A stretch of DNA of 32,000 nucleotides from Methanocaldococcus jannaschii DSM 2661 (GCF_000091665.1 NC_000909.1:122871-154870), one strand, 5' to 3'; positions 2,308 through 31,609 are shown, counted from the first letter of the stretch. The notes: a model not told the origin generated them from the letters alone. Numbers and translations are program-made.

Positions 2308-3584
2308 CTAAGTTTTTACTCTAACTTTTCCAGTTAATAATAACTCCATAATTTTCTTTTTCATTCTTTGTAGTTTTTCTTTCTTTTGTTTTTTCAATTC
2401 TATGCTTTTATCTACTGAACTTAATATTTTAGCTATTTGTTTTTGCTCTTCTAAAGGAGGGAGAGGGATTTTAAAGTTTTCAAGCATAGATTTTGATAAT
2501 TCTTTAAAAGTGCTTCCCCCACTTAGATTTTCAAGTAAATTTTTTTTAAACTTTAAATAATAAGCATAAAATTCAGTATTAACCGAATCGTTATTTTTTG
2601 GAATAATCCCTTGCAACCTTGATTAAATGTAGATTCTACAGTTAAAACTGCAACATACCCAACTGGTGCTCTTGTTGATATAATAATTGAACCTTTTGGA
2701 ATTAAATTTAAGTTACACTTTTCTAATGCTATTTTTGTTACTTTTCTTTCACTACTTCCAATATAGATTTTTTCATTTAACCTGCTTAAATCCAATGGTG
2801 TTATCCAATTTATTTCTCCATTTTCCCAATATTCTGATTTTTTAGTTGATGGGGTAGTTCCCGTTTTTACTTCAAATATATCTTTAATCTCAAAAACTTC
2901 CCAATCCTCTGGAATCTCCCCAATCTCAGATTTTTTAAATCTACTATGCCCTATTCCCTTAGTTAATAATTTATGCATTAAACCCTTTTTAATCCTCTCC
3001 AATTTATTAATTGATTTCTCAATAATCTCAATACCTTCATCAATTTTAGTTAAAATTTTAGCTATTTGTTTTTGCTCTTCTAATGGAGGGAGAGGGATTT
3101 TAAAACTTTTTACTATTTGAGCATTCAAATTTTTCTGTGTTGTTTGCATTCCTAACTTAGAGTAATAATTTTTATTTTTAGCTAAAATATAATACAAAAA
3201 TTCACTTTCTAAAATATTATCTTTTGGTATTATCCCTAAAATTGCTTGATTTGTGGCTACTTCTATTTTATTTATTGCTGTTTCTCCAATACTTCCATAC
3301 ATAGCAAATAATACAGAATTTTTCGGAACTATCCACGCATTGGAATTATTTAAACCTTCTTCAGTTATTTTTATTTTTGTATTGGTTAAATATTTATTTG
3401 AATTGGTTATATCTTCAATTTTAACAAATGGAATAGTCCCATTTTTATAATATTCTTCTACACTGGTTTTTGGTGTTCCTCCTGCTTTTATTTTTTTACA
3501 AACATCCTTTAGCTCAACAATCTCCCAATCCTCTGGAATCTCTCCAATCTCTGTTTTTTTAAAATTCTCTTCTTTATAGAACAT
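2308..3584 (-). pseudogene. hsdS: Type I R-M specificity subunit HsdS, split by a 1-nt frameshift near 2611-2622 (as sequenced)
   Basis: Two target-recognition domains. The conserved spacer [18 protein letters not shown] occurs twice (about 50-bp direct repeat, 2427-2480 and 3056-3109). ORF 2553..3584 ends ...[10 protein letters not shown] in the wrong frame. ORF 2308..2616 resumes with QGIIPKNN, which parallels [12 protein letters not shown] of TRD1. Adding one T to GGTT would give [12 protein letters not shown] in frame. Confidence 0.85.
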
Positions 3585-5733: not shown

Positions 5734-6555
5734 CTACAACTCATTATAACACTTCATCAACAAAACAGCGTCATACTCCAACATAGGACTTTCACATATA
5801 ACAGTTCCAGAGGCATCAAAATCCTTCAAAGCTTTTAAAACATCTCTATAGTTAAAGTTAGATTCATTTAAAGGCAAATGTCTCCTTTCTCCTCCTTTTC
5901 CATATTCTATTCCAGATAAATGAATATGCATATCTTTTATAGCCTCTTTTCCTAAAACATTCTCAACTTTTTCAAGAATTTTATAAAAAGAGTTGTAATC
6001 GTTTATAACTCCCCTACTTCTTGCATAAATATGGGAGAAATCAATACATGGTAAAATATTCAGCTCAAAGCATAATTTTAGTGTCTCATCAATATCTCCA
6101 AATTGAGTAGTTTTTCCAGTAGTTTCAGGCCTTAGCATAACATTTAAATTTAAAGCCTCTAACTTATCCAAAATTCTCTGAATATTTGATTTTATTCTAT
6201 TGTAGGTTACTTCTTTACTTCTTTTCAAATAATATCCAGGATGAAAAACTAAATTTTTTCCACAATTATTCAAAACCTTAGCAGTTTTAATTATTCTCCT
6301 TATGCTATTCTCTACTTTTTCCTCCTCATTTGCATTAAGATTTATATAGTGAGGGGCATGGGCTGAGAAAATAATATCTTCTCCATACTCTTTCAACTTT
6401 TTAGCATAATCTTCTTTCATATAAACTCCTTTAACAAATTCCAACTCCATAGCTCCTAAATTTAATTTTCTTAAGACATCTACAGCTTTAAATTCATCCT
6501 CTGCAGATATTGGAACTCCAGCAGTGCCAAATATCAACATAATTTCCCTATTCAT
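5734..6555 (-). CDS. Endonuclease IV-like protein (AP endonuclease family 2, xylose-isomerase-like TIM barrel)
   Basis: 273 aa. Metal-ligand-like blocks SAHAPHYINL, VFHPGYY, RPETTGK, IDFSHIY and MHIHLSG follow the family layout. Confidence 0.6.
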   Translation of the reverse strand: MNREIMLIFGTAGVPISAEDEFKAVDVLRKLNLGAMELEFVKGVYMKEDYAKKLKEYGEDIIFSAHAPHYINLNANEEEKVENSIRRIIKTAKVLNNCGKNLVFHPGYYLKRSKEVTYNRIKSNIQRILDKLEALNLNVMLRPETTGKTTQFGDIDETLKLCFELNILPCIDFSHIYARSRGVINDYNSFYKILEKVENVLGKEAIKDMHIHLSGIEYGKGGERRHLPLNESNFNYRDVLKALKDFDASGTVICESPMLEYDAVLLMKCYNEL

Positions 6556-6631
6556 TTTCTTTCTTATCCTCTTTTTCTTCTTTATCTAAAGGCTTAGGGG
6601 GGACTCTTGCAACCGTTATATATCCAGCCAT
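6548..6631 (-). pseudogene. Displaced duplicate of the trmI 3' coding end (reads MAGYITVARVPPKPLDKEEKEDKKENE*)
   Basis: Hand-translated. Aligns codon for codon with the trmI C-terminus GYITVARVPPEPLDREEEKE. Its stop, TAG 6548-6550, overlaps the start of the downstream gene (ATG 6555-6553). Confidence 0.7.
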
Positions 6632-6684
6632 AGGGAAACCCTATTGGGATACCCTAACACCTCCTCGCTTACGCTCGGAGGTGT
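6630..6684. repeat. GC-rich bipartite palindromic element, copy A (possibly one of the published M. jannaschii MJRE palindromic repeats)
   Basis: Hairpin 1 is ATAGGG-AAA-CCCTAT (6630-6644). The linker is TGGGATACCC. Hairpin 2 is ACACCTCC (6657-6664), loop TCGCTTACGCTC, GGAGGTGT (6677-6684). Related copies are at 12177-12237 and, in part, 8332-8358. Confidence 0.75.
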
Positions 6685-6693
6685 AAATTATTT

Positions 6694-7542
6694 TTATTCT
6701 TTCTCTTCTTCTCTATCTAAAGGCTCTGGTGGAACTCTCGCGACAGTTATGTATCCAGTATGTCCAATCATCCTTGTTGATGGCCTAACACCTTTTTCAG
6801 AGATTTCAATCTCTCTCTCAATAATCTCATAGGTGTGGATATCCCAAAATCCTTCCTCTTTAAGCTTCTCTACAGTTTTTTTAACTTGCTCTATGTATGG
6901 GAGATAAGTAACTATTCTCCCCCTCTTTTTGTTTAAAGCCTTTTTTGCATTCTCTACAACATTCCAGGGGTCTGGTAAATCTAAGACAATAACATCAACA
7001 TCCTTCTCATCTATCTTCTCCCTAACATCTCCAATTTTTTGTATGACATTGAATAATCCATCTTCAATTTCAATCTCATCCTCATCATCAAACTCTTCAT
7101 CTAAACCAATAATTTTTTGCCCTTTTTTAATAGCTCCAACTCTCAACAGATTTTTCCTTGCAACTTTGGCAAATTCTGGCCTTATATCATAAGTAATAAC
7201 TTTCCCTGTCTTACCAACAGCATTTGATAGATACATAGTTAAAGCTCCAGAGCCAGTTCCAGCTTCAACTACTGTCTCTCCCTCTCTAATTCCAGCTCTT
7301 GCTATAATAAACCCAATATCTTTTGGTAATAGGGTTGTTACTGTCCTCTTCATTCTCTTTAAGATATCAAACATTGTAGGTTCAACCAAATAGAAAGTAT
7401 GTCCTTTGTGGGATTTTAACTCAACTCCTTCCTCAATATCCTTCATATCTACAATTCCCAAATCTGTTCCAAACTTCTCAACATTCTTTTTTAACAAATA
7501 TCTCTTCCCTCTCTCATCCACTAACAATTTATAAGCAAACAT
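6694..7542 (-). CDS. trmI: tRNA (adenine-N1)-methyltransferase TrmI/Gcd14 family
   Basis: 282 aa. SAM motif VVEAGTGSGALTMYL, DLPDPW catalytic-region motif, and an acidic insertion DEEFDDEDEIEIED. Confidence 0.8.
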   Translation of the reverse strand: MFAYKLLVDERGKRYLLKKNVEKFGTDLGIVDMKDIEEGVELKSHKGHTFYLVEPTMFDILKRMKRTVTTLLPKDIGFIIARAGIREGETVVEAGTGSGALTMYLSNAVGKTGKVITYDIRPEFAKVARKNLLRVGAIKKGQKIIGLDEEFDDEDEIEIEDGLFNVIQKIGDVREKIDEKDVDVIVLDLPDPWNVVENAKKALNKKRGRIVTYLPYIEQVKKTVEKLKEEGFWDIHTYEIIEREIEISEKGVRPSTRMIGHTGYITVARVPPEPLDREEEKE

Positions 7543-7546
7543 AATA

Positions 7547-8239
7547 TCACTCTATAATTAGCTTTGTCTGTTTTGATTTATCCAATATCCTTTTACATGT
7601 TTTCCAGTGAGTTCTTGCAATATCAGGAAGTTTTTTATGCTTTTTAAAGTAATCTTCAAGAAACTTTATAGTTTTTGGGTCTGATGGATAACCGCTCCCA
7701 ATATCTCCATAAATTTTTTTGTAGTAGTCTATTATCTCATCCCGTTCTGCCTTTGCTATTATTGAGGCAGCTGAAACAACAGGATACTTAGCATCTGCCT
7801 TATGTTCAGCTATAATTTTTATGTTTAAATTTCTTTCTTTAATTATATCCTCTATCTTATCTTTAAAACTATCCTCAAATTTTTTAGTGTTTGTACTGCA
7901 TGCATCAATATAAATTTCAATTTCATCATCCCTTATATTCAACTTTTCTATCAAATTTTTAGCAACCTTGGAAAAGGCGTTAATTTCAATATCATTTAAG
8001 TTTATTGAGTTCATTAATTGGTTTATTTCCTCTGCTTCTAAGATACGTTTTTCTACATAACCCAAATTTTCAAGTAACTTTTTTAGATAAGCCCTTTTAT
8101 TTTTAGTTAGCTCCTTACTATCTTTAACTCCCAATTTCTTTAATTCCTCTTCTCTCTCTTTTTCAATTGCAAAAGCACAAACAACCATTGGACCCAAAAC
8201 AGGCCCTCTTCCAGCTTCATCAATACCAATAATTATCAT
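7547..8239 (-). CDS. rnhB: Ribonuclease HII
   Basis: 230 aa. IIGIDEAGRGPVLGPMVV N-terminal active-site block, VSAASIIAK, and GSGYPSDP. Confidence 0.9.
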   Translation of the reverse strand: MIIIGIDEAGRGPVLGPMVVCAFAIEKEREEELKKLGVKDSKELTKNKRAYLKKLLENLGYVEKRILEAEEINQLMNSINLNDIEINAFSKVAKNLIEKLNIRDDEIEIYIDACSTNTKKFEDSFKDKIEDIIKERNLNIKIIAEHKADAKYPVVSAASIIAKAERDEIIDYYKKIYGDIGSGYPSDPKTIKFLEDYFKKHKKLPDIARTHWKTCKRILDKSKQTKLIIE

Positions 8240-8290
8240 AATTGCACCTCTTTTTTAAAACGAAATCTAAAAGTATTACATAGCTAAATT

Positions 8291-8358
8291 GGACATTAAT
8301 TGGGGCTGAAAGCCCCAACTTAATGGACGTCGGGTATCCCAATAGGGCGGAGCCCTAT
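8291..8358. repeat. GC-rich palindromic element, copy B (inverted relative to copies A and C, with a different second hairpin)
   Basis: Extended hairpin CATTAATTGGGGC-TGAAA-GCCCCAACTTAATG (8294-8325), then GGGTATCCCA, then ATAGGGC-GGA-GCCCTAT (8342-8358). Positions 8291-8322 are an exact inverted copy of 20803-20834. Confidence 0.75.
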
Positions 8359-8473
8359 GGATAGGAAATGCATTTCTGCTCATAAGTTTATCTCTATATA
8401 ATAATTTCTACTTAGTTTAAGCAGTAAGCATTTTATATGCTTTTTTAAAGAATATTAAAATACTACAAAAACC

Positions 8474-8582
8474 TATAGTTTTTTGCAAAAGTCATTAAAA
8501 TTCATAATGAAAATTTGAACGCCTTCCTTTGGAAGGCGTTCATTAATGCCTTATCCATCTTAAATATTTGCAAAAAACTATA
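8474..8582. repeat. Long-stem palindromic element: 16-bp outer inverted repeat plus a central 11-bp GC hairpin
   Basis: TATAGTTTTTTGCAAA (8474-8489) pairs with TTTGCAAAAAACTATA (8567-8582). The centre is GAACGCCTTCC-TTT-GGAAGGCGTTC (8517-8541). It ends 2 nt before the purP SD AGGTGA. Confidence 0.7.
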
Positions 8583-9682: not shown

Positions 9683-10051
9683 GTTAGTATCTTGTGAAAA
9701 ATTTAATATTGCTTAGCTTTATTTCTTTAAAACTTTATTCGTTTATTTAGAGGTTTTAAATTTAATTTCTAAGGGTTTGCTGGTTTGATTGTTTAGAATA
9801 TTTAACTTAATCAAATTATTCAGATTTTTGAAAATTAAGATTAATTAGGCAAGTAAATAAAATTTCTCTAACTAATAAGTTAAATTTTTGGATTTAAAAA
9901 GATAAGAATGCTCTGTTTTATTAAAGGGAGAAAATTTTAAATATTAAAAGGTTTATATTATGGAGTAGTTACTTACCCTTAGAAAAATATGGTATAGAAA
10001 AGCTTAAATATTAAGAGTGATGAAGTATATTATGTTGTGAATGATTGCCCT
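9683..10051 (+). promoter_or_regulatory. CRISPR leader (AT-rich, about 370 bp) with a candidate TATA box TTTATATTA at 9952-9960
   Basis: It lies on the side of the array carrying the intact consensus repeats; degenerate repeats are at the far end. It contains no ORF. The TATA-like motif is about 90 nt upstream of repeat 1. Confidence 0.6.
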
Positions 10052-11130
10052 ATTAAAATCAGACCGTTTCGGAATGGAAATCAGGGAGGTAGGAGGGAGG
10101 TTCTCCTTGGATTTCTATTAAAATCAGACCGTTTCGGAATGGAAATCTATTAAGTCCCATGCAGACCTACCAATACGTTCATAGTAAGGCCTAATTAAAA
10201 TCAGACCGTTTCGGAATGGAAATTATGTTACAAAAGTTGGAGAGGAAGATTTAAAACTTGATTAAAATCAGACCGTTTCGGAATGGAAATTTAATTCTAA
10301 TGCCTTGTTTTTTACATCTTCTGGAAATTAAAATCAGACCGTTTCGGAATGGAAATGTCTTTAATTTCATCTCTATAGCTTCTTCTATTGCTTTAAATTA
10401 AAATCAGACCGTTTCGGAATGGAAATAATGTAAATTTAAAAATATAACGTTGCAAATAAGGAATTAAAATCAGACCGTTTCGGAATGGAAATCAGTAGTT
10501 AAAACTTAAAGCACAAAACACCTTCATTCCATTAAAATCAGACCGTTTCGGAATGGAAATGAAGTATTTTTATCTTTTGCGATATTTTCTATAATCTCAT
10601 CAATTAAAATCAGACCGTTTCGGAATGGAAATTATTTTTGTTGTTTAAATCTATTGTGTATAATGTGGTAATTAAAATCAGACCGTTTCGGAATGGAAAC
10701 TTTTTGCTTCATTTTCATTTAAATTAACTATAAAACAGTAATTAAAATCAGACCGTTTCGGAATGGAAACATGGAGCAAAACAACATATTGTTTTAATAG
10801 TGGATGATTTTTAATTAAAATCAGACCGTTTCGGAATGGAAACGCATTACAGAATTTATATTATTTATATACTGTTTATGATTAAAATCAGACCGTTTCG
10901 GAATGGAAACAAAACACCACCTTCAATAAACTTATCAATTTGATATTTATTAAAATCAGACCGATTCGGAATGGAAATTGTATTAATTCCAGTTGTAATA
11001 TTTGATAATGAGACATTAAAATCAGATTAAAATCAGACCGTTTCGGAATGGAAACTTTATCTAATTTAACCCGCTTATGGTTTTAGATGAACCCCGCTCC
11101 ATTAAAATCAGACCGATTCGGAATGTGAAA
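10052..11130 (+). CRISPR. CRISPR array: 16 repeats of 30 bp and 15 spacers of 35-47 bp
   Basis: Repeat starts: 10052, 10117, 10194, 10261, 10327, 10397, 10463, 10531, 10603, 10671, 10741, 10814, 10881, 10949, 11026, 11101. Consensus ATTAAAATCAGACCGTTTCGGAATGGAAAT. Repeats 10-13 and 15 end in C. Repeats 14 and 16 carry CCGATTC. Repeat 16 is further degenerate (GAATGTGAAA). All spacers are unique. Confidence 0.97.
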
Positions 11131-11243
11131 ATCCCTTAGCTTTTTTTATATTGTCTTATTAATAGGATAGAAATCTGTAAAAATAGAGTTATTTAGATTT
11201 AATGATAATTGCAACATAAAAAAGTATAATGTAATTAATTATT

Positions 11244-12104
11244 CTATTTAGCCCCATTCTCCTGTTTTACTGGATATGGCATAAATTCAACTGTTCCCCT
11301 TTGTCTTACTGGTTGCTTATACAATTCCATTAATGTATAAACCTCTTCAGGAACATTCGTATCTACATCTAAACCAAGTTCTTTAGCTTCTTCAACAGTT
11401 ATTGGATAGTCATGAGTCCATCTTCCTTCTGTTAATATCTTAGACAATTCTTTGGCTTTTTCTTCTCCATACTTATCCTTCAATAAATTATATACAAAAT
11501 TTTGAACTTGATTTATTGCTTTTTTAGCAATATCTGCCAATATTAATGTTTGGTCGTCTGCTTTATCAGCCCCTTTCTGCTCTACAGCTTTAACTATACT
11601 TGGAGCAGGATATTGCCCAAGTTGTGGGTCTACAGGTCCCAAAACTGCATTTTCATCCATGATTATTTTATCTGCAGCTAAAGCTATTAAAGTTCCTCCA
11701 CTCATTGCATAGTGTGGAACTATAACTCTCGTCTCTGCTGGATGAGCTTTTAATGCCTTTGCTATTTGAGTAGCTGCCAAGACTAAACCTCCTGGTGTGT
11801 GTATAATTAAATCTATAGGTTTATCTTTTGGAGCTGCCCTTATGGCCCTCAAAATCTCCTCACTATCTTCAATTGTTATAAATTTATAAACTGGAATTCC
11901 AAACAAGCCAATACTCTCCTGCCTATGTATCATAGTTATTACTGTTGAATTTCTTTTATTTGATAGCTCTCTAAGTATTTTTAATCTTGCAAGTTGTAAT
12001 TGCTTATACTGTATTTGAGGAGCCATAATTAAATAAAAGAACAAAAGCCACCAAATTAATGAGCTAATAAAACCACTTAATGGGTCCATTTTCTCCCCCC
12101 ACAT
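11244..12104 (-). CDS. Membrane-anchored ClpP-class serine protease (SDH / SppA-like family)
   Basis: 286 aa. N-terminal TM helix, then IHTPGGLV and MSGGTLIALAADK blocks of the ClpP/crotonase-fold peptidases. The likely start is ATG 12089, preceded by GGGGGGAG. Confidence 0.65.
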   Translation of the reverse strand: MWGEKMDPLSGFISSLIWWLLFFYLIMAPQIQYKQLQLARLKILRELSNKRNSTVITMIHRQESIGLFGIPVYKFITIEDSEEILRAIRAAPKDKPIDLIIHTPGGLVLAATQIAKALKAHPAETRVIVPHYAMSGGTLIALAADKIIMDENAVLGPVDPQLGQYPAPSIVKAVEQKGADKADDQTLILADIAKKAINQVQNFVYNLLKDKYGEEKAKELSKILTEGRWTHDYPITVEEAKELGLDVDTNVPEEVYTLMELYKQPVRQRGTVEFMPYPVKQENGAK

Positions 12105-12123: not shown

Positions 12124-12172
12124 TTAGATTATCTTTCTCATCCAATTATCTAACCTCTCTAAAAAGTTATCT
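12124..12172 (-). pseudogene. Displaced original 3' end of the CobQ-like gene (reads ...[15 protein letters not shown])
   Basis: Positions 12139-12172 are 34/34 identical to 12267-12300, inside the intact gene. Hand-translation continues in frame to a stop at 12124-12126. Confidence 0.7.
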
Positions 12173-12266
12173 CCCCATAGGGCTATCGCCCTATTGGTAT
12201 ACCCGGGATGCATTGCCTCGCTTACGCTCGGCAATGCCTCTTAAATTAATATTTATTAATATTTTC
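12173..12266. repeat. GC-rich bipartite palindromic element, copy C (94-bp insert bounded by 34-bp direct repeats)
   Basis: Hairpin 1 is ATAGGGC-TATC-GCCCTAT (12177-12194). The linker is TGGTATACCC. Hairpin 2 is GCATTGCC (12210-12217), loop TCGCTTACGCTC, GGCAATGC (12230-12237). The AT-rich tail 12246-12266 encodes the C-terminus now in use, ENINKY*. Confidence 0.8.
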
Positions 12267-13694
12267 CATCCAATTATCTAACCTCTCTAAAAAGTTATCT
12301 TCCTCATCCTTTATATGATTATTTATTTCAACCTCTGGGATTTCTATTTCTAAATCAACATTAAAGGCATTTCTGCAGAAGCTTTCATAATCAATCTCTA
12401 CTTCTGGAATTAGTCCCCTACTCTCATTAGCTATTTTTCCAACTCCATAGAGCTTTATGTTATGTTTTTCAGCCAAACTTTTTAATTTATTGAAAGAGTT
12501 CCAATCATAGACTTTATTTAAAATTACTCCTTCAACTTTAATCCCAATATCTTTGAGTAGGCTGTAATAAGCCATTGCCTCTACAAAAGCTCCCTCTATC
12601 CCACTTATATTGCAAGCACTTACTATATAAACTGGAAATCCAAGCTTTTTGGCTATTTGATAAGAGGAAATATTTTTTAATGCTGCAGTAAAAGCTCCCA
12701 TAACCCCTTCAACAATTATGTAATCATAATCTGACTTTTTTATATAATCTAAAAATTTAGAAACATCAACCCATCCTCTCTCTCCAATCTTTATGCTGTT
12801 GTATTTTGTCATCTTCTCTCTCAATAAATAAAGAGCTGGCACTATATCCCTAACATCCCCGCCAATCTTAGCAACAAAAACTCTTCCATTTAATTTTGAT
12901 GATAAAGCAGTTGTTAAAAACGTCTTTCCACTGTTTGATGATGTTGCCAATAAAATAATCCCTCTTTTTTTATTAACATCTTTTTTATTATTCTCTTTTA
13001 GTAATTTTGGGTTTAATCTATATTTTAAAGCCCTCTTTTTTAATTCATCTTTTATAATCTTATTTTTTTCAAATATTTCCTCTTTCTCATCCTCTGTAAC
13101 TCCCAAATGTTTTAAAAAATTGTCTCTGACAAATTCATTATCTAAGAAGTTATGAACCATTGTTCCAAACACTTTTCCTTTAAAAGCTCCAGAGATAATT
13201 TCTTTTTCAGCTCCAAGTTTATAATTTAGCTTTTTTACTTTTGAAACTGTTAGAATTTTAGTTTCTTTATCAACTACCTCAATATTTCCATAAGTATGGC
13301 AGTGAAACCCTTCTCCCTTTCCCTCTCCAAATATTGATTTTTTTACTTCAAATTCTACTCTATCTGTGCAAACTAATGGAGAAAACTCAACATCCAACAA
13401 ACCTAAGCCCTCTTTAATTATTGGAACGCTGCTTTTTCTTCCAATGTCTATCTTTTTAGCTAATATCTGAAAACCACTGCAAATGCCAATTATATACCCA
13501 TTAAAGTTAATTATTTCTTTTTTTAAATCATCATTTAATGATTTACTTTCAATTAAACTTCCTCCAGGTATTATCAAAGCATCTAAATCTTTAATTTCTT
13601 TATAATTATTTTCAGTTATAATCTTTGTTGGTAGATTGCCGAAATCTTCAAATAATGGAAGAGACCCCTTAATATCCAAAATACCAATTTCCAT
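12246..13694 (-). CDS. CobQ/CobB-like glutamine amidotransferase with permuted domain order (GATase N-terminal, DTBS/CobQ-type P-loop C-terminal)
   Basis: 482 aa. The N-terminal half has IIPGGS, GICSGFQ (nucleophile Cys) and HNFLDNE, as in the CobB/CobQ GATase domain. The C-terminal half has ATSSNSGKT (P-loop) and VEGVMG. Confidence 0.6.
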
Positions 13695-20251: not shown

Positions 20252-20349
20252 AATAGAACTTTCGCAGTTTTATACTACTAATTAAGGAACATTGATGCCA
20301 AAAGGCATCTTTGTGCAATAATAAATTTTATTCCTGCGAAAGTTCTATT
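20252..20349. repeat. Long-stem palindromic element; one arm is the last codons of the ferredoxin gene
   Basis: AATAGAACTTTCGCAG (20252-20267) pairs perfectly with CTGCGAAAGTTCTATT (20334-20349). The central hairpin is GATGCC-AAAA-GGCATC (20294-20309). Confidence 0.65.
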
Positions 20350-20537
20350 GATATAGCTTGGTCTGGGCATTGTAATATACAGAGATTGCACTTTGTGCAT
20401 TTTTCAGGATTTACTGGGATTGGTGGGTAGATACCTTTTTTATTCAACTTTTTTGATTTCTCAAATACTCCTCTTGGACATACTACAATACATATATCAC
20501 ATCCCTTACAGAAGTTTTCATTTATTTCTATCTTCAT
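20328..20537 (-). CDS. 2x[4Fe-4S] ferredoxin
   Basis: 69 aa. Motifs CKGCDICIVVCP and CTKCNLCILQCP. Confidence 0.85.
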   Translation of the reverse strand: MKIEINENFCKGCDICIVVCPRGVFEKSKKLNKKGIYPPIPVNPEKCTKCNLCILQCPDQAISIELSQE

Positions 20538-20566: not shown

Positions 20567-20620
20567 TTATAACACTCTTTTTATAGCATTCCAGATTAAA
20601 AAACTCTGTGGTTTTAAAAG
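20567..20620 (-). pseudogene. Displaced duplicate of the ATPase 3' coding end (reads ...[17 protein letters not shown])
   Basis: Hand-translated. Aligns with the C-terminus in use, [20 protein letters not shown]. Differences are mostly synonymous, including TCA versus AGT for Ser. Confidence 0.65.
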
Positions 20621-20640
20621 AAACTTTTAGTAAAAGTTGA

Positions 20641-20699
20641 ACAAAAACTCTTCGAGTTTTTGTAGCCCGAAGCTAACGCTTCGGTTTCATCAAAACTCG
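20641..20699. repeat. Nested palindromes: ACAAAAACTC-TTC-GAGTTTTTGT, CCGAAGC-TAAC-GCTTCGG, and an outer CGAGTTTT...AAAACTCG
   Basis: Read directly from the sequence: 10-bp stem at 20641-20663; 7-bp stem at 20667-20684; an 8-bp outer pairing of 20653-20660 with 20692-20699. Confidence 0.6.
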
Positions 20700-20705
20700 T
20701 CCATT

Positions 20706-20802
20706 TAACCAATTATCAAAGTTTTTAATTAAATAAGGCACATATAGAAGCCCTTTGGGCTTCTAAATTCCATAGTAAATAATATCCTTTGATAATTGGT
20801 TA
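20706..20802. repeat. Long-stem palindromic element: 16-bp outer inverted repeat plus a central 8-bp GC hairpin
   Basis: TAACCAATTATCAAAG (20706-20721) pairs with CTTTGATAATTGGTTA (20787-20802). The centre is AGAAGCCC-TTT-GGGCTTCT (20746-20764). The interior resembles 8490-8566 in reverse orientation (shared TGCCTTAT, ATG-AATTT-GAA). Confidence 0.7.
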
Positions 20803-20834
20803 TAAGTTGGGGCTTTCAGCCCCAATTAATGTCC
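20803..20834. repeat. GGGGC-hairpin repeat, an exact inverted copy of 8291-8322; supplies the last two codons and stop of the ATPase gene
   Basis: TAAGTTGGGGCTTTCAGCCCCAATTAATGTCC is identical over 32 nt to the reverse complement of 8291-8322. On the minus strand, GGA CAT TAA gives G H stop. Confidence 0.8.
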
Positions 20835-21941
20835 ATTCAGTAATTTCTTTATAGCATTCCAGATTAAAAATGATTGTGGTTTTAAAATTCCTTCAATAGG
20901 ATTTAGGAATAAAATATTTTTCTTAACTAAATAAATATAAACTGGTTCTGGTATATCATCATCACTAACTTCATAATTTTCTTTAAATAATTTTAACGCA
21001 TTTATAATATCATCCTTTTTAATCTCAATGATTTCATCTTTAAGTTCTACTTTTGGTTTTATATAATCCAACTCCTTTAAAAAATACTTTAGTTTTTGAG
21101 TTTCTTCTTTAAGCATTAAATTTAGAATATCTTCTAACTTCCTATACCTCATCTCATCAATCACACTGTAGATATATACCGGTTTTCCTCCTACATAGTT
21201 ATAGATTAACTCTTTATCTTCATCAGAGAGTTTTTTATTTAAAATCTCTTTAGCCAAGAAATCCATAAATTTTAAAGCTGTCTCTTTATCAAAGTCATCC
21301 ACTAAGAGGTATTTGGCTCTACCTTCCAACTCTCCAGCACTATAAACATATTCAATAAATAAGCTATCAGAACTTAGACAAAAAACATGGCATAGATGTT
21401 GTTCTTTAGTTAAAGAAACTAAAAACTGAAACAACTCTTTTAACAAGTATTTTTGCCAATTTAAAACTACATCTTTAATCATCTGAAGTTCATCAAGTAT
21501 TAACACTGGCTGTTTTCCACTCTTTTTAACCTCTAATAGTATAGAGTTTAAGTATTGGAAGGCATCATTTATTTTCTCTTCAAATAATTTATCAAACTCT
21601 ACTTCAGGTATTGGAATACCAGTTAAAATCTTAGCCCCTTTTGTTATCAAATTTAAAACTTCTGATTTATCTTTTATTTTTTCAAAGAAATCATCTTTTT
21701 TAGTGGTAAAGATAGCTTCAATAAATTCCCTCTTTTCTGAAATTAAATAAGTCCTAAAATTAATATAAAAAACCTTATAATCATCACTTAGTTTGTTTTC
21801 AATGATGTGTTTTATTAGAGCAGTTTTACCAGAATTTAAAGGGCCGTAGATGAAATAAATTATATTTGGTTCTCCCTCTAAGATTGATAGAATTTCATGA
21901 ATTTCTTTTTCTCTATTGAAGAATTTCATTTGAATCACCAT
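20826..21941 (-). CDS. Archaeal ATPase family protein (P-loop NTPase, Arch_ATPase/DUF234-type)
   Basis: Walker [12 protein letters not shown] and Walker B LILDELQ. The likely start is ATG 21929 ([10 protein letters not shown]), with GGTGA 5 nt upstream. Confidence 0.75.
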
Positions 21942-24425: not shown

Positions 24426-26672
24426 TTGAAAATTCGTTTATATGGTGAAACGATGGTCGTGGGCAATATAATAGAAGGAGGGAAAACAGTTCTAAATTTA
24501 ACAAAAGAAATCTTAGAGAAAGAAGATGAGAACCTAAAAGTATCTTATCCTGGAACAAATTACAACCTACCAATTATATACGGTCTTTTAGGTAAAAAGA
24601 TAGAGACAGTCAAAGACTTAAAAGAATTAATTAACTCACTTGAGATAAAAGATGAAGAAACGTTAGAAAATGCGTTAGATGCTGGAGTTGTAACATTAAT
24701 ATGTGCTGAAGCGATTGAGGCTTTAAAATATGCAAAGAGTGAAAAACCTTACAAAGAGCCATATGTTGGCTTTATTCCTGATGAAATTTTGAGAGGTTTA
24801 GGAGTTCCTCTCGTAGAAGGAAAAATCCCTGCAATTTTAGTAGTTATTGGAAAAGTTGGAGATAAAGAGAAGCTAAAAAAACTCATAGATGACATAAAAA
24901 AGAGAAATATTTTGGCGTTATTAGTTGGAGATATAGTTAAAGAGATGGATGAAGCTGACATTGAGTATGGTTTAGACAAACTCCTTGTTCCAGTTGGAAA
25001 TGAAATAACCTCAGCAATACACGCTGCAAACTTGGCTATAAGAGCTCCATTAATATTTGGAGGAATTGAGCCTGGAAAAACAGAAGAAATTATAGACTAT
25101 CTAAAAAACAGAGTTCCAGCTGTTGTTGTAGCTTTGGGAGAGTTGGATAACATAACCTTAGCCGCTGGAGCTGGATGTATAAAAGCTGGAGTCCCAGTTA
25201 TAACCAACAATGAGGTTCCAGTTATTAAAGGAGCTTTAGAGAGTTCAGACATTGATAATATAGTAGAAAATGCCCTAAAAATGAAAGGCGTTAAGGTTAA
25301 GGTAGTTGAATTTGACATCCCTGTCTCTGTTGGGCCGATGAATGAGGGGGAGAGAGTTAGGGGCCCTGATATGTATGTTGAACTTGCAGGGCCGAAGAGT
25401 TATGGTTTTGAGTTGGTAAAAGTTGTAAATAAAGCAGAGGATAAGGTTGAAATTATAGGAAAAGATATTGATGAGATGGAAGAGGGTAGTAGAAACCCAT
25501 TCGCTATAATTGTTGAAGTTAGTGGAAGTAATTTGGAGGAAGATTTAGAAGGAGTTTTAGAAAGAAGAATCCATGAGTTTTTAAATTACATAGAAGGAGT
25601 AATGCACCTAAACCAAAGAGACCAAGTATGGATAAGAATAAATAAAAACTCGTTTAACAAAGGTTTAAGACTAAAACACATTGGTGAAGTTGTAAAACAA
25701 CTCTTTAAAGAACATTTCCCAATTGTTGAGAAGTGTAATGTAATTATTATAACAGACCCAGATAAGGTTAAAGAAGAGTTAGAGAAAGCCAAAGAGATTT
25801 ACAAAAAGAGAGATGAAAAAACAAAATCCATAAGAGAGGAAGATGTTGATGTATTCTACGGCTGTGTAATGTGTCAGAGTTTTGCTCCAACTCATGTATG
25901 TATTATAACACCAGACAGACCTTCCCTCTGTGGAAGTATAAACTACTTAGATGCAAGGGCTGCTGCTAAAATAGACCCTAACGGACCGATATTCGAAATA
26001 CCAAAAGGAGAATGCTTAGATGAAAAGTTAGGAATCTACACAGGTGTGAATGAGGTTGTTAGGGAGAGGTCTCAAGGAAGTGTTGAAGAGATGGCATTAC
26101 ATAGTGCTTTAACAAACCCATGCACATCTTGCGGATGCTTTGAGGCTATTGTCTTCTACATCCCAGAAGTTGATGGATTTGGAGTAGCCCATAGAAACTT
26201 TAGAGGAGAGACACCGTTTGGTTTGCCATTCTCTACTTTAGCTGGGCAGTGTAGTGGTGGAAAGCAGGTTCCTGGGTTCGTTGGTATTTCAATATCTTAT
26301 ATGAAATCCCCTAAGTTCTTACAGGGAGACGGTGGTTGGGAGAGGGTTGTTTGGTTACCGAAAGAGTTAAAAGAGAGAGTTAAAGATGCGATACCAGAAG
26401 AGTTGTATGATAAGATAGCTACAGAAGAAGACGTTAAAACAACTGATGAATTAATCAAGTTCCTAAAAGAAAAAGGACATCCAATAGTTAAAAAGACAGA
26501 GGAAGAAGTTGTTGAAGAAGTCGAAGAAGAGAAAGAAGAGGTTAAAGCTACTGAAGAGGAAAAAGAAGGCATTGAAGTTGGTGAGTTAATAACCAAGTTA
26601 GCAAAAGAGGGAGGAATCCAAATTATTATGAAGAACGTCAAGATTGTGATAAATCTCAATGTGAAAAGATAA
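24426..26672 (+). CDS. Long-form acetyl-CoA synthase (A-cluster subunit, CdhC/AcsB) with a bacterial AcsB-like N-terminal domain
   Basis: The C-terminal about 450 aa are paralogous to cdhC at 30200..31609 (CVMCQSFAPTHVC, CTSCGCFE). The N-terminal about 300 aa contain SYPGTNYNLPIIYG and AEAIEALKYAK, which resemble the AcsB N-terminal blocks YPDTAYYLPVI and AAEIIEALRYLKY as recalled from memory. The probable true start is ATG 24453, with GGTGA 4 nt upstream. Confidence 0.8.
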   Translation: MKIRLYGETMVVGNIIEGGKTVLNLTKEILEKEDENLKVSYPGTNYNLPIIYGLLGKKIETVKDLKELINSLEIKDEETLENALDAGVVTLICAEAIEALKYAKSEKPYKEPYVGFIPDEILRGLGVPLVEGKIPAILVVIGKVGDKEKLKKLIDDIKKRNILALLVGDIVKEMDEADIEYGLDKLLVPVGNEITSAIHAANLAIRAPLIFGGIEPGKTEEIIDYLKNRVPAVVVALGELDNITLAAGAGCIKAGVPVITNNEVPVIKGALESSDIDNIVENALKMKGVKVKVVEFDIPVSVGPMNEGERVRGPDMYVELAGPKSYGFELVKVVNKAEDKVEIIGKDIDEMEEGSRNPFAIIVEVSGSNLEEDLEGVLERRIHEFLNYIEGVMHLNQRDQVWIRINKNSFNKGLRLKHIGEVVKQLFKEHFPIVEKCNVIIITDPDKVKEELEKAKEIYKKRDEKTKSIREEDVDVFYGCVMCQSFAPTHVCIITPDRPSLCGSINYLDARAAAKIDPNGPIFEIPKGECLDEKLGIYTGVNEVVRERSQGSVEEMALHSALTNPCTSCGCFEAIVFYIPEVDGFGVAHRNFRGETPFGLPFSTLAGQCSGGKQVPGFVGISISYMKSPKFLQGDGGWERVVWLPKELKERVKDAIPEELYDKIATEEDVKTTDELIKFLKEKGHPIVKKTEEEVVEEVEEEKEEVKATEEEKEGIEVGELITKLAKEGGIQIIMKNVKIVINLNVKR

Positions 26673-30199: not shown

Positions 30200-31609
30200 A
30201 TGTTTGATGATATCCCTGTCTCTGTTGGGCCGATGAATGAGGGGGAGAGAGTTAGGGGCCCTGATATGTATGTTGAACTTGCAGGGCCGAAGAGTTATGG
30301 TTTTGAGTTGGTAAAAGTTGTAAATAAAGCAGAGGATAAGGTTGAAATTATAGGAAAAGATATTGATGAGATGGAAGAGGGTAGTAGAAACCCATTCGCT
30401 ATAATTGTTGAAGTTAGTGGAAGTAATTTGGAGGAAGATTTAGAAGGAGTTTTAGAAAGAAGAATCCATGAGTTTTTAAATTACATAGAAGGAGTAATGC
30501 ACCTAAACCAAAGAGACCAAGTATGGATAAGAATAAATAAGGATTCTTTTAATAAGGGATTGAGATTAAAGCATATTGGAAAAGTCGTTCAAAGATTGTT
30601 TAAGGCAGAGTTTCCGTTTATAGAAAAATGTGATGTAACCATCATAACAGACCCAGAAAAAGTTAAAGAAGAGTTAGAAAAGGCAAGAGAAATTTACAAC
30701 AAAAGAGATGAGAAAACTAAGGCACTGCATGAAGAGGATGTTGATGTATTCTATGGTTGTGTGATGTGTCAAAGTTTCGCTCCAACACACGTGTGTGTTA
30801 TAACTCCAGACAGACCAGCGTTGTGTGGAGGTATAAACTACTTAGATGCAAGGGCTGCTGCTAAAATAGACCCTAACGGACCGATATTTGAAATACCTAA
30901 AGGAGAATGCTTGGATGAAAAGTTAGGAATTTACTCTGGAGTAAATGAAGTTGTTAGAGAAAGGTCTCAAGGAACTGTTGAAGAGGTAACCCTACATAGT
31001 GCATTAGAAAAACCTTGCACATCTTGCGGATGCTTTGAGGCTATTGTCTTCTACATCCCAGAGGTTGATGGATTTGGTATAGCACATAGGGGATATAAAG
31101 GAGAAACTCCAATGGGAATTCCATTCTCTACTTTAGCTGGGCAGTGTAGTGGTGGAAAGCAGGTTCCTGGGTTCGTTGGTATTTCAATATCTTATATGAA
31201 ATCCCCTAAGTTCTTACAGGGAGACGGTGGTTGGGAGAGGGTTGTTTGGTTACCGAAAGAGTTAAAAGAGAGAGTTAAAGATGCGATACCAGAAGAGTTG
31301 TATGATAAGATAGCTACAGAAGAAGACGTTAAAACAACTGATGAATTAATCAAGTTCCTAAAAGAAAAAGGACACCCATGTGCTGAAAGAATAGGTGCTG
31401 AAGTTGAAGAAGAGGCAATTGAAGAGGAAGAAGTAGAAGAAGAGATGGAAGAAGTTGAAGGAATTGAAGTACCAACTATGACTCTTCCAGGAACATTTGC
31501 TGGGCTTCCACCAGGAATAAAAATAGTCTTATACAATGCAGTAATTAAAGCAGAAAAAATAATTATTACAAAAGAAGAGCCAGAAAAGAAGAAGAAAAAG
31601 AAGAAGTAA
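30200..31609 (+). CDS. cdhC: CODH/ACS beta subunit (acetyl-CoA synthase, A-cluster), short archaeal form
   Basis: 469 aa. CVMCQSFAPTHVC...LCG [4Fe-4S] ligands and the CTSCGCFE Ni-binding Cys-Gly-Cys. An acidic region, then a poly-Lys tail. GGTGA SD upstream. Confidence 0.9.
   Translation: MFDDIPVSVGPMNEGERVRGPDMYVELAGPKSYGFELVKVVNKAEDKVEIIGKDIDEMEEGSRNPFAIIVEVSGSNLEEDLEGVLERRIHEFLNYIEGVMHLNQRDQVWIRINKDSFNKGLRLKHIGKVVQRLFKAEFPFIEKCDVTIITDPEKVKEELEKAREIYNKRDEKTKALHEEDVDVFYGCVMCQSFAPTHVCVITPDRPALCGGINYLDARAAAKIDPNGPIFEIPKGECLDEKLGIYSGVNEVVRERSQGTVEEVTLHSALEKPCTSCGCFEAIVFYIPEVDGFGIAHRGYKGETPMGIPFSTLAGQCSGGKQVPGFVGISISYMKSPKFLQGDGGWERVVWLPKELKERVKDAIPEELYDKIATEEDVKTTDELIKFLKEKGHPCAERIGAEVEEEAIEEEEVEEEMEEVEGIEVPTMTLPGTFAGLPPGIKIVLYNAVIKAEKIIITKEEPEKKKKKKK

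Follow-up and report, generated by a model that had tools for sequence, protein, structure and literature searches.

How does a conserved gene come to have two different 3' ends, one in use and the other stranded downstream beyond a small piece of structured DNA? The question is raised by trmI, a tRNA methyltransferase gene, in the 32,000-nucleotide (nt) stretch of the Methanocaldococcus jannaschii DSM 2661 chromosome analysed here (GCF_000091665.1, NC_000909.1:122871-154870; referred to below as the window, with positions counted from its first letter). The trmI reading frame closes next to a GC-rich element made of two hairpins, beyond which a second, displaced copy of the gene's 3' end precedes an endonuclease IV-like gene, nfo (Table 1). 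We call the end in use copy A and the displaced relic copy B. The architecture is family-wide and not peculiar to trmI: in Methanocaldococcus genomes a small hairpin element often separates a working gene end from a second, displaced copy in which the gene's last 10-25 codons are repeated. The comparisons set out below show that the two copies are not products of divergence in place but two alleles of the gene end, each of which stood in a working gene of a different lineage until recently.

Two alleles of a gene end

At trmI, a repeat finder places the direct repeat at 6557-6627 and 6688-6758 (71 nt, 76% identical, spacing 131), with a core of 53 nt that is 83% identical. A reading made from the sequence alone had noticed the displaced second end and counted nine differing codons among 17. 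Codon comparison confirms that count, with seven synonymous third-position changes (TAC/TAT, ACT/ACG, GTC/GTT, GCG/GCA, GTT/GTC, CCA/CCC and CCA/CCT) and two conservative replacements (E/K and R/K). By itself this single locus is suggestive: at least seven of nine differences at third positions gives P = 0.008 against a uniform expectation of one third (binomial), and P ~0.09 if a neutral relic is paired with an in-use copy that changes only synonymously, where about half of the differences would be expected at third positions. What is decisive is the pooled set from a wider sample, made up of orthologous trmI loci, vent metagenome contigs carrying the terminal hairpin of the element, and further genomes reached through the protein collection.

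The pattern scan of the metagenomes was unspecific, returning 120 hits mostly from unrelated organisms; a filter at a GC content below 0.36 left 29 contigs, about 21 of them with elements of the family and the remainder from unrelated low-GC organisms. The 100 nt after each element terminus were then aligned to the 700 nt upstream of the element. About 18 of 26 genuine termini were followed by a direct repeat of 25-63 nt that starts 0-7 nt past the terminus, with scores of 20-48 against a maximum of at most 15 in shuffled sequence. [quoted passage not shown] In all 16 independent gene-3'-end loci, copy A closes a long open reading frame (ORF) and the fixed terminus of the element faces downstream. 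The duplication usually takes in the stop codon and a few bases beyond it, and copy B continues into the original downstream sequence.

Across the 179 duplicated codons of these 16 loci, copies A and B differ 13, 7 and 50 times at first, second and third codon positions, and the codon differences comprise 43 that are synonymous and 19 that are non-synonymous. The third-position excess has P = 8e-11 against an expectation of one third and P = 2e-4 against one half. By the Nei-Gojobori method, the proportions of synonymous (pS) and non-synonymous (pN) differences between A and B are 0.43 and 0.054, a ratio of 0.13, and the trmI and nfo orthologues of different Methanocaldococcus species give pS values of 0.39-0.64 and ratios of 0.03-0.11. 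Since both pS and pN/pS resemble those of interspecies orthologues, A and B differ in the way that working alleles of different species do. No frameshifts were seen in the aligned A/B cores, and decay in place over such divergence is rejected because all codon positions would change and frameshifts would appear. In addition, 14 of 20 relics have a stop codon 3-21 nt upstream that closes their frame and lack an in-frame start, which makes selection on a translated relic unlikely. The proposal of the sequence-only reading that both ends diverged under protein-level selection is therefore borne out well beyond trmI, and the third-position bias holds in the tabulated gene-end duplicates.

The layout of these loci, [p..q]-element-[p..q] with a sharp terminus (p being the left limit of the duplicated segment), is also what would be expected of a long target-site duplication, in which transposition with widely staggered cuts 25-80 nt apart, filled in to give identical copies of the gene end, is followed by synonymous change in copy A and neutral decay in copy B. 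Identical or near-identical pairs do exist (34/34 at the cobQ-like gene of the window, 26/26 on contig L158 and 28/30 on contig L137), and the first colonisation of each locus was probably of this kind. As an account of the pattern as a whole, however, a target-site duplication is unlikely: it predicts at most about half of the differences at third positions and a pN/pS ratio of about 0.5, against the 71% (50/70) and 0.13 found here, and the aligned cores are free of frameshifts. Its remaining difficulties come from the comparison of close relatives.

Mosaic ends in close relatives

Alignment of orthologous trmI loci, which the sequence-only reading had proposed, revealed element-free sites, with a single gene end directly before nfo, in sp. 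16A, FS406-22 and M. lauensis and on contigs L207 and L208. The close relatives sp. 16A, 10A and 28A, whose trmI genes are 0.05-0.08 apart at third positions (the nfo genes of 16A and 10A, 0.07), are in three different states at this site, and 28A has no nfo at the trmI locus. The relic of 10A differs from the single functional end of 16A at 4 of 54 nt and has the same long tail and spacer. It carries two first-position replacements relative to the 16A end (Pro to Ser and Asp to Tyr), as expected for a sequence that is just starting to decay. The first two codons of this relic, ACT GGA, are of donor type, as in the relics of other genomes, and copy A of 10A starts with GGT, the 16A type, before continuing as M. 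lauensis type.

A second pair shows the same reciprocal arrangement. M. lauensis has no element, and contig L001 carries a lauensis-like trmI (0.10 apart) in which copy A is of lauensis type over codons 1-6 and foreign from codon 7, and copy B is foreign over codons 1-9 and lauensis-like thereafter. Campbell, or ends-in, integration produces a direct duplication of the homology region and reciprocal chimeras, and is reversible by recombination between the copies. Both a direct duplication around the insert and reciprocal chimeras are found here, the latter in 16A/10A and in M. lauensis/L001, few as these pairs are. In two further cases only copy A is testable: that of 28A equals 16A through codons 1-6, and that of contig L016 equals the element-free L207 through codon 10 (flanks 0.03-0.07 apart), and both then diverge.

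Copy A of 10A consists of the left part of L001 copy B and the right part of L001 copy A, which is the chimera expected, to judge from these mosaics, on a circle excised by A x B recombination in a lauensis-type donor. Contigs L086 and L148 are 97.5% identical, yet A and B have exchanged a patch in the middle of the repeat, as would happen if the unit were excised and then re-entered with its crossover at another point. Most copies have their nearest match in another genome and not in their partner, and each copy has a working counterpart elsewhere. Copy A of L164 differs from the functional end of L208 at 2 of 54 nt, and copy A of M. jannaschii is nearest to the functional end of L207 (7/54 differences, versus 9/54 to its partner copy B); its codons GCG AGA GTT are common to most in-use copies beside the element in other genomes. 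Relics compared across genomes differ mostly at third positions. The left limit p is identical in six genomes at trmI, and relics at the identical junction CCCTATGG/ACTGG are found in L001, L164, M. bathoardescens, M. fervens and sp. 10A. A long target-site duplication leaves unaccounted for the match of the 10A relic to the functional 16A end beside a copy A of lauensis type, the reciprocal pattern in the first codons, the patch swap of L086 and L148, and the third-position bias among relics of different genomes.

These comparisons show that the relic is the resident end, that both copies are mosaic, and that turnover among close relatives is high. At the cobQ-like gene of the window, too, orthologues end in ..DNW[IM][KR][KR]II, the tail type of the relic, and the in-use tail ENINKY is unique; FS406-22 and M. 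fervens have no element at this site. For trmI of M. jannaschii, which has no close element-free relative in the data, the same polarity would follow by analogy and from the nearest-neighbour evidence. The sequence-only reading had proposed that one end came from a diverged homologue by recombination, with the element at the junction, and 10A agrees, having an in-use end of M. lauensis type and a relic close to the 16A end. Its view of the relic as the ancestral end stands for the 10A relic and the cobQ-like tail, but its picture of one wholly old and one wholly new copy gives way to two mosaics. We also set aside its suggestion that an overlap of the relic stop with an ATG reflects operon coupling: this ATG (6555-6553) is not the start of the downstream gene, which lies at 6540 (ATGTTGATATTTGGC) and is kept in all orthologues, with 268 amino acids (aa) annotated in FS406-22.

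Some of these loci have peculiarities of their own. Over positions 2162-4119 of L001, a metagenome-assembled genome contig of 2x coverage, rnhB and trmI are M. lauensis-like (0.10 at third positions), and nfo is like that of sp. 10A/16A (0.08-0.10, versus 0.32 to M. lauensis); either recombination took place in nature, with its breakpoint close to the element cluster, or the assembly is chimeric at the repeats. Phylogenetic incongruence between trmI and nfo was considered as evidence of a breakpoint and given little weight, being strong only in this low-coverage contig. On L003, a run of N at 1287-1385 covers the trmI end and the first element, so that copy A and part of the cluster are unreadable. 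Finally, the close relatives L207 (2330-2364) and L016 (848-875) read the tail nucleotides AGAAGCCAATGAATAA in different frames; judging from these sequences, frameshifts are tolerated in the acidic C-terminal tail of TrmI, and the protein can probably do without this tail.

Probable single-crossover integration and its alternatives

We consider it probable that the gene end together with its element forms a unit that spreads between lineages, recombining with the resident gene end through one homologous crossover; the donors, we infer, are often other species. The mobile unit would be a small circle arising from A x B recombination in the donor, or an equivalent ends-in linear fragment. One homologous crossover of the Campbell or ends-in type would join it to the resident gene end, giving a copy A composed of the resident left part, the donor right part and the element, and a copy B composed of the donor left part and the resident right part. 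Recombination between A and B would remove the unit again and leave an element-free chimeric end. Gain and loss would be fast relative to neutral divergence, so that relics would always be fresh.

Several points weigh against this single-crossover reading. The mosaics from which the mechanism is deduced come from a few genomes, L001 among them, where the contig has about 2x coverage and assembly chimerism at repeats is possible. The direction of events is ambiguous, because integration and excision are one reaction reversed, and gain in 10A and loss in 16A fit equally. The crossover points of L001 differ, lying at codon 6/7 in copy A and at codon 9/10 in copy B, so that either a single clean crossover is too simple or later conversion took place. 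Within each of four genomes (M. jannaschii, L001, M. bathoardescens and L164), A and B have similar right parts, which means that gene conversion or repeated events are needed as well. Circles of 104-139 bp are also very small for duplex DNA. Finally, homologous recombination cannot explain the first arrival, the invariant terminus or the fixed orientation. First arrival at a new gene, with its precise end at CCCTATGG, probably needs an element-specific process; the cobQ-like case, with an identical 34-nt core that has the look of a normal though long target duplication, resembles a young event of this kind.

A more radical form of the single-crossover reading is possible, and we offer it tentatively: the elements may be mobile DNA without integration machinery of their own, which use the last 25-80 nt of the host gene as a homology arm. 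They would then leave as a tiny circle of gene end and element, through recombination of the flanking copies, and a single crossover would let them into the homologous gene end of other genomes, other species included. With every arrival, the gene end found there would be pushed aside and become a fresh relic.

A one-sided route, by homology-facilitated illegitimate recombination or template switching, would have the donor anneal by its gene-end arm, leaving copy A wholly donor and copy B wholly resident. Such joining would account for the fixed terminus and orientation, for the variable left limit p and for the allelic difference between A and B, and it could use self DNA for new insertions. 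It is nonetheless improbable, since it predicts neither donor-type codons at the left end of B (ACT GGA in the 10A relic, codons 1-9 in that of L001) nor resident-type codons at the left end of A. Inspection of the sequences found no recurrent microhomology at the terminus/p junctions, and the identity of p in six genomes at trmI fits an inherited junction better than repeated illegitimate joins. Two candidate rules, microhomology between the terminus and what precedes p, and a constant codon phase for p, were tried, and neither was consistent across loci.

We think it very unlikely that the loci are scars of a larger, integrase-bearing virus or plasmid that brought a replacement gene 3' end and later lost its interior, leaving the hairpins behind. 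A foreign end in use beside a displaced resident end, with mainly synonymous differences between them, is what is seen for e14 at icd/icdC (PMC13626634), and archaeal integrases can carry out low-specificity recombination with the outcome of homologous recombination (PMC8371274). Yet all of the sites, three in 32 kb and about 18 distinct ones overall, hold only the 60-230 bp hairpin family, with no coding remnant, and the gene end differs from locus to locus, beyond what a site-specific integrase could recognise. The sole locus with extra DNA is that of sp. 28A (L004), where a large integrated element was considered on account of the missing nfo and rejected: the extra DNA is an insertion sequence accompanied by rearrangement. 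In this region (7064-7636 and 7924-8499), a DDE-type transposase gene stands directly after the trmI element cluster, in the place of nfo, and a 41-nt direct repeat (90%) with copies 535 nt apart lies nearby in the rearranged region.

Least credible of all is a functional relic, expressed by translation from a start in the element terminus, by ribosome hopping, by removal of copy A and the element from the mRNA or by frequent DNA excision in a polyploid cell: copies B do show coding-type conservation between genomes, an ATG at CCCTATGG does open a 27-aa ORF in M. jannaschii, and excision would restore function to the right part of B, but against this stand the closed relic frames, an element-terminus ATG that is out of frame in L001, L164, M. 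bathoardescens and others, the two first-position replacements of the 10A relic relative to the working 16A end, and the absence of any splicing-suited complementarity that recurs between loci.

The junction of M. jannaschii itself reads CCCTATGG/CTGG, with one A lost relative to the CCCTATGG/ACTGG of L001, L164, M. bathoardescens and sp. 10A. Through this loss the relic comes into frame with the ATG of the element terminus, which opens the ORF at 6548-6631; this ORF translates as MAGYITVARVPPKPLDKEEKEDKKENE and may be annotated by gene callers. Translation of the relic was rejected as a general feature, the in-frame ATG (6631) being specific to M. jannaschii. Pairing of the element with the start of the repeat, as a splicing-type motif, is present at trmI and absent at other loci, and was likewise discarded. 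A 15-nt match between 6648-6662 and 6779-6793 (13/15, in register with the spacing of 131) pairs the 3' arm of the first hairpin with trmI coding sequence, an unusual coincidence at the repeat spacing. A 131-nt tandem duplication was considered on this basis, and the match was judged to be chance because GGTGTTAGG is conserved in the element family, the intervening segments are unrelated, and L164 is 4 nt out of register.

The hairpin family, in the window and among known systems

The elements are GC-rich, 60-230 bp long, and sit at the stop codon or a few bases past it in a single orientation, with CCCTATGG downstream. Their build is modular: the first hairpin is variable and falls into several classes that differ in their self-complementary stems, and the terminal hairpin after it has the form ..CCAATAGGG-loop-CCCTATGG, with a stem that is invariant across 11 copies in the family alignment. 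The flank starts directly after CCCTATGG, and this same terminus lies beside unrelated flanks in at least 6 copies; the left-end consensus is AAT/TTACACCTC. The element at trmI has a fold energy of -30.6 kcal/mol (z = -4.3 against shuffles). At least four copies or clusters are present in the window and dozens in related loci, and the flanking duplication of the gene 3' end varies in length between 25 and 80 nt. No Rfam family matches the element at the gathering score or at E <= 1, and a scan limited to bacterial-type signals found no terminator-like sites and no excess of promoter-like ones.

Three gene-end duplications around elements occur within the window, at genes ending at 6694, 12246 and 20826, and the second and third, also at minus-strand genes, have the same layout as trmI (Table 1). 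The identity of trmI as MJ0134 is supported by the M. jannaschii protein P0059, which has the same length and tail as the product of the window's gene, and by the Pfam domain GCD14 found on TrmI orthologues. At the archaeal ATPase gene, the sole difference between the copies is CAA TCA versus CAG AGT, which encode Gln Ser either way. The 33-nt left arm of this third case recurs at 8290-8322.

Table 1. Genes, gene-end copies and hairpin elements in the window
Feature	Position	Strand	Remarks
trmI (tRNA m1A57/58 methyltransferase, MJ0134-type)	6694..7542	-	282-aa ORF; TAA 6696-6694; 3' end duplicated
rnhB	8239-7547	-	Upstream neighbour of trmI
trmI copy A	6688..6761	-	In-use 3' end (..TGYITVARVPPEPLDREEEKE, then stop); stop codon + 6 nt, abuts left end of element
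trmI element, two hairpins, GC-rich	6628..6687	-	60 nt, between copies A and B
First hairpin	6658-6683	-	CACCTCC-GAGCGTAAGCGA-GGAGGTG
Terminal hairpin	6628-6654	-	GGGTATCCCAATAGGG-TTT-CCCTATGG; fixed terminus CCCTATGG abuts copy B
trmI copy B	6548..6627	-	Displaced 3'-end relic (GYITVARVPPKPLDKEEKEDKKENE, then stop); runs on into ancestral tail, stop 6550-6548 and pre-gene spacer
Endonuclease IV-like gene (AP_endonuc_2; nfo)	5734..6540	-	Start ATG 6540; 268 aa; downstream of copy B
cobQ/cobB-like gene, coding sequence	12246-13694	-	Host gene of second case
Second case, copy A	12259..12303	-	In-use cobQ/cobB-like 3' end; novel tail ENINKY, then stop
Second case, element	12176..12258	-	Hairpin GCATTGCC-GAGCGTAAGCGA-GGCAATGC and terminal hairpin ending CCCTATGG
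Second case, copy B	12131..12175	-	Relic with ancestral tail ..DNWMRKII, then stop; followed by protease gene 11244-12104
Archaeal ATPase gene, coding sequence	20826-21941	-	Host gene of third case
Third case, copy A	20848..20887	-	In-use ATPase 3' end; last codons and stop (..NGH) from left arm of element, GGACATTAA
Third case, hairpin-module cluster	20620..20847	-	Several modules, 228 nt
Third case, copy B	20580..20619	-	Relic with ancestral tail ..KRVL, then stop; followed by ribosome-binding site and ferredoxin-like gene 20328-20537
Family member	8290..8365	+	Between divergent starts of rnhB and purP; no flanking duplication

The elements themselves show further variation. In the minus-strand copy near 5700 on contig L159, the inner segment GAGCGAAGCGAG of the first hairpin is inverted to CTCGCTTCGCTCG, with the outer stem unchanged, relative to other elements of the GCATTGCC class, and the same inner segment is common to two classes with different outer stems. 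In nested elements (L001 3005-3140, L004 6838-6935 and L206 2347-2450), TTTACACCTCCGAGCG is interrupted and then repeated as TTTACACCTCTGCC.., so that insertion of an element into an element seems to obey the same rule, with a short duplication of the host element flanking the insert.

Not every site is a gene 3' end. On contigs L159 (3804-3957) and L186 (4863-5020), what is duplicated is the beginning of an opposite-strand gene, with its ribosome-binding site, its start codon and its first 5-8 codons, and the architecture is therefore not strictly confined to gene 3' ends. On three metagenome contigs (L190 near 6001, L191 near 2075 and L186 near 10998), the CRISPR repeat directly next to CCCTATGG is missing its first 4 nt (AAATCAGACCGTTTCGGTATGGAAAT), and complete repeats lie upstream; elements thus seem to enter CRISPR arrays or leader junctions, one repeat acting as the duplicated segment. 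No such element lies at either end of the CRISPR array of the window (10025-11131; 18 repeats, Rfam CRISPR-DR13).

The window holds other repeats as well. Exact repeats of 300 nt (25313-25612 versus 30208-30507) and 122 nt (26239-26360 versus 31134-31255) lie 4895 nt apart and indicate that a gene region of several kb was recently duplicated or homogenised. Internal repeats at 167-1491 and 2399-3563, with periods of 656 and about 625 nt and 70-96% identity, lie upstream of methylase genes and resemble paralogues, or duplicated halves, of specificity genes of type I restriction systems.

Among known arrangements, the closest analogue is the cryptic prophage e14 (with phage 21) of E. coli K-12. 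At icd/icdC, e14 supplies the working 3' end and displaces the resident fragment, and its excision yields a functional chimera (PMC13626634; Hill et al. 1989 cited there). The loci described here are alike in these respects: the working 3' end is linked to the element, the C-terminal fragment that was there originally has become a displaced pseudogene, and the changes between the two ends are several synonymous and a few conservative ones. They differ in that e14 is about 15 kb long, with its own integrase and a single attachment site, whereas the present elements are non-coding hairpins of 60-230 bp that use at least 18 genes, with exchange points at various places in the repeat, as expected if recombination is homologous and not site-specific. 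Campbell integration, for its part, is known mainly from plasmids and laboratory gene targeting with homology of hundreds of bp; the homology here is 25-80 nt, up to about 20% diverged, in a unit of about 104-139 bp that belongs to a natural multi-copy element.

The elements fail the defining tests for classical MITEs (miniature transposable elements with inverted repeats at their ends) and for hairpin repeats of the IS200/IS605 or RAYT type. Their left ends (AAT/TTACACCTC, TAAGAG/GCATTGCC and GGACATTAATTG) are not the inverse of the right terminus CCCTATGG, so that there are no terminal inverted repeats, and the variable duplications of 25-80 nt are not short target-site duplications of fixed length. 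Nor do they insert without duplication beside a fixed tetra- or pentanucleotide, the left junctions lying in varied AT-rich sequence. The inserts have no coding capacity and no integrase, and no related autonomous insertion sequence sharing their ends was seen in the window. Tandem duplication by slippage, with nothing foreign between the copies, does not describe them, as an element of the family always intervenes. Insertion sequences of the IS1634 type make variable target duplications of tens to hundreds of bp that are identical at birth, and are autonomous, with a transposase; they share the long variable direct repeats but leave the synonymous divergence and the mosaics unexplained. MITEs, REP/BIME, Correia and other miniature repeats are small, non-coding, structured, multi-copy and found at gene ends (PMC2229807), as are the present elements. 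MITEs, however, have terminal inverted repeats and short fixed target duplications, and the IS200/IS605- and RAYT-linked kinds have none, whereas the present elements have unlike ends and a duplication that is long, variable and allelic.

Each element is a short, GC-rich, palindromic and multi-copy sequence in an AT-rich Methanocaldococcus genome, and we take the family to be probably the MJRE palindromic repeats of 2005. Suyama, Lathe and Bork reportedly described MJRE1-3 in FEBS Letters in 2005 as multi-copy GC-rich palindromes that lie mostly just outside genes and sometimes extend into coding sequence. To our knowledge, their report mentions neither flanking duplications of gene 3' ends nor allelic synonymous divergence. 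The existence and topic of that paper are attested by citations in PMC2229807 and PMC2996958. In the searchable literature, a check outside which the 2005 paper itself falls, we found no description of flanking allelic gene-end duplications, and the family-wide pattern is apparently undescribed.

If integration by a single crossover is the correct reading, a homology-guided spread of miniature non-coding elements would join the transposase- and integrase-based modes, and the position of these repeats at gene ends would be explained. The C-terminal tails of conserved archaeal proteins, among them those of trmI, the cobQ-like synthase, a HypF-like protein and an SMC-like ATPase, are in any case shown to be remodelled by element traffic. 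For annotation, the relics yield spurious small ORFs, such as that at 6548-6631, and misplaced start codons. Each relic is a snapshot of the resident allele at the time of the element's arrival, and together the relics provide a direct measure, otherwise hard to obtain for organisms growing at 85 °C, of how often and between which lineages Methanocaldococcus exchanges DNA. Should the elements also travel without machinery of their own, as we tentatively suggest, the relics would amount to a dated, genome-wide record of DNA exchange between lineages of hyperthermophilic methanogens, in which the C-terminal tails of housekeeping proteins have been swapped repeatedly by a non-coding parasite.

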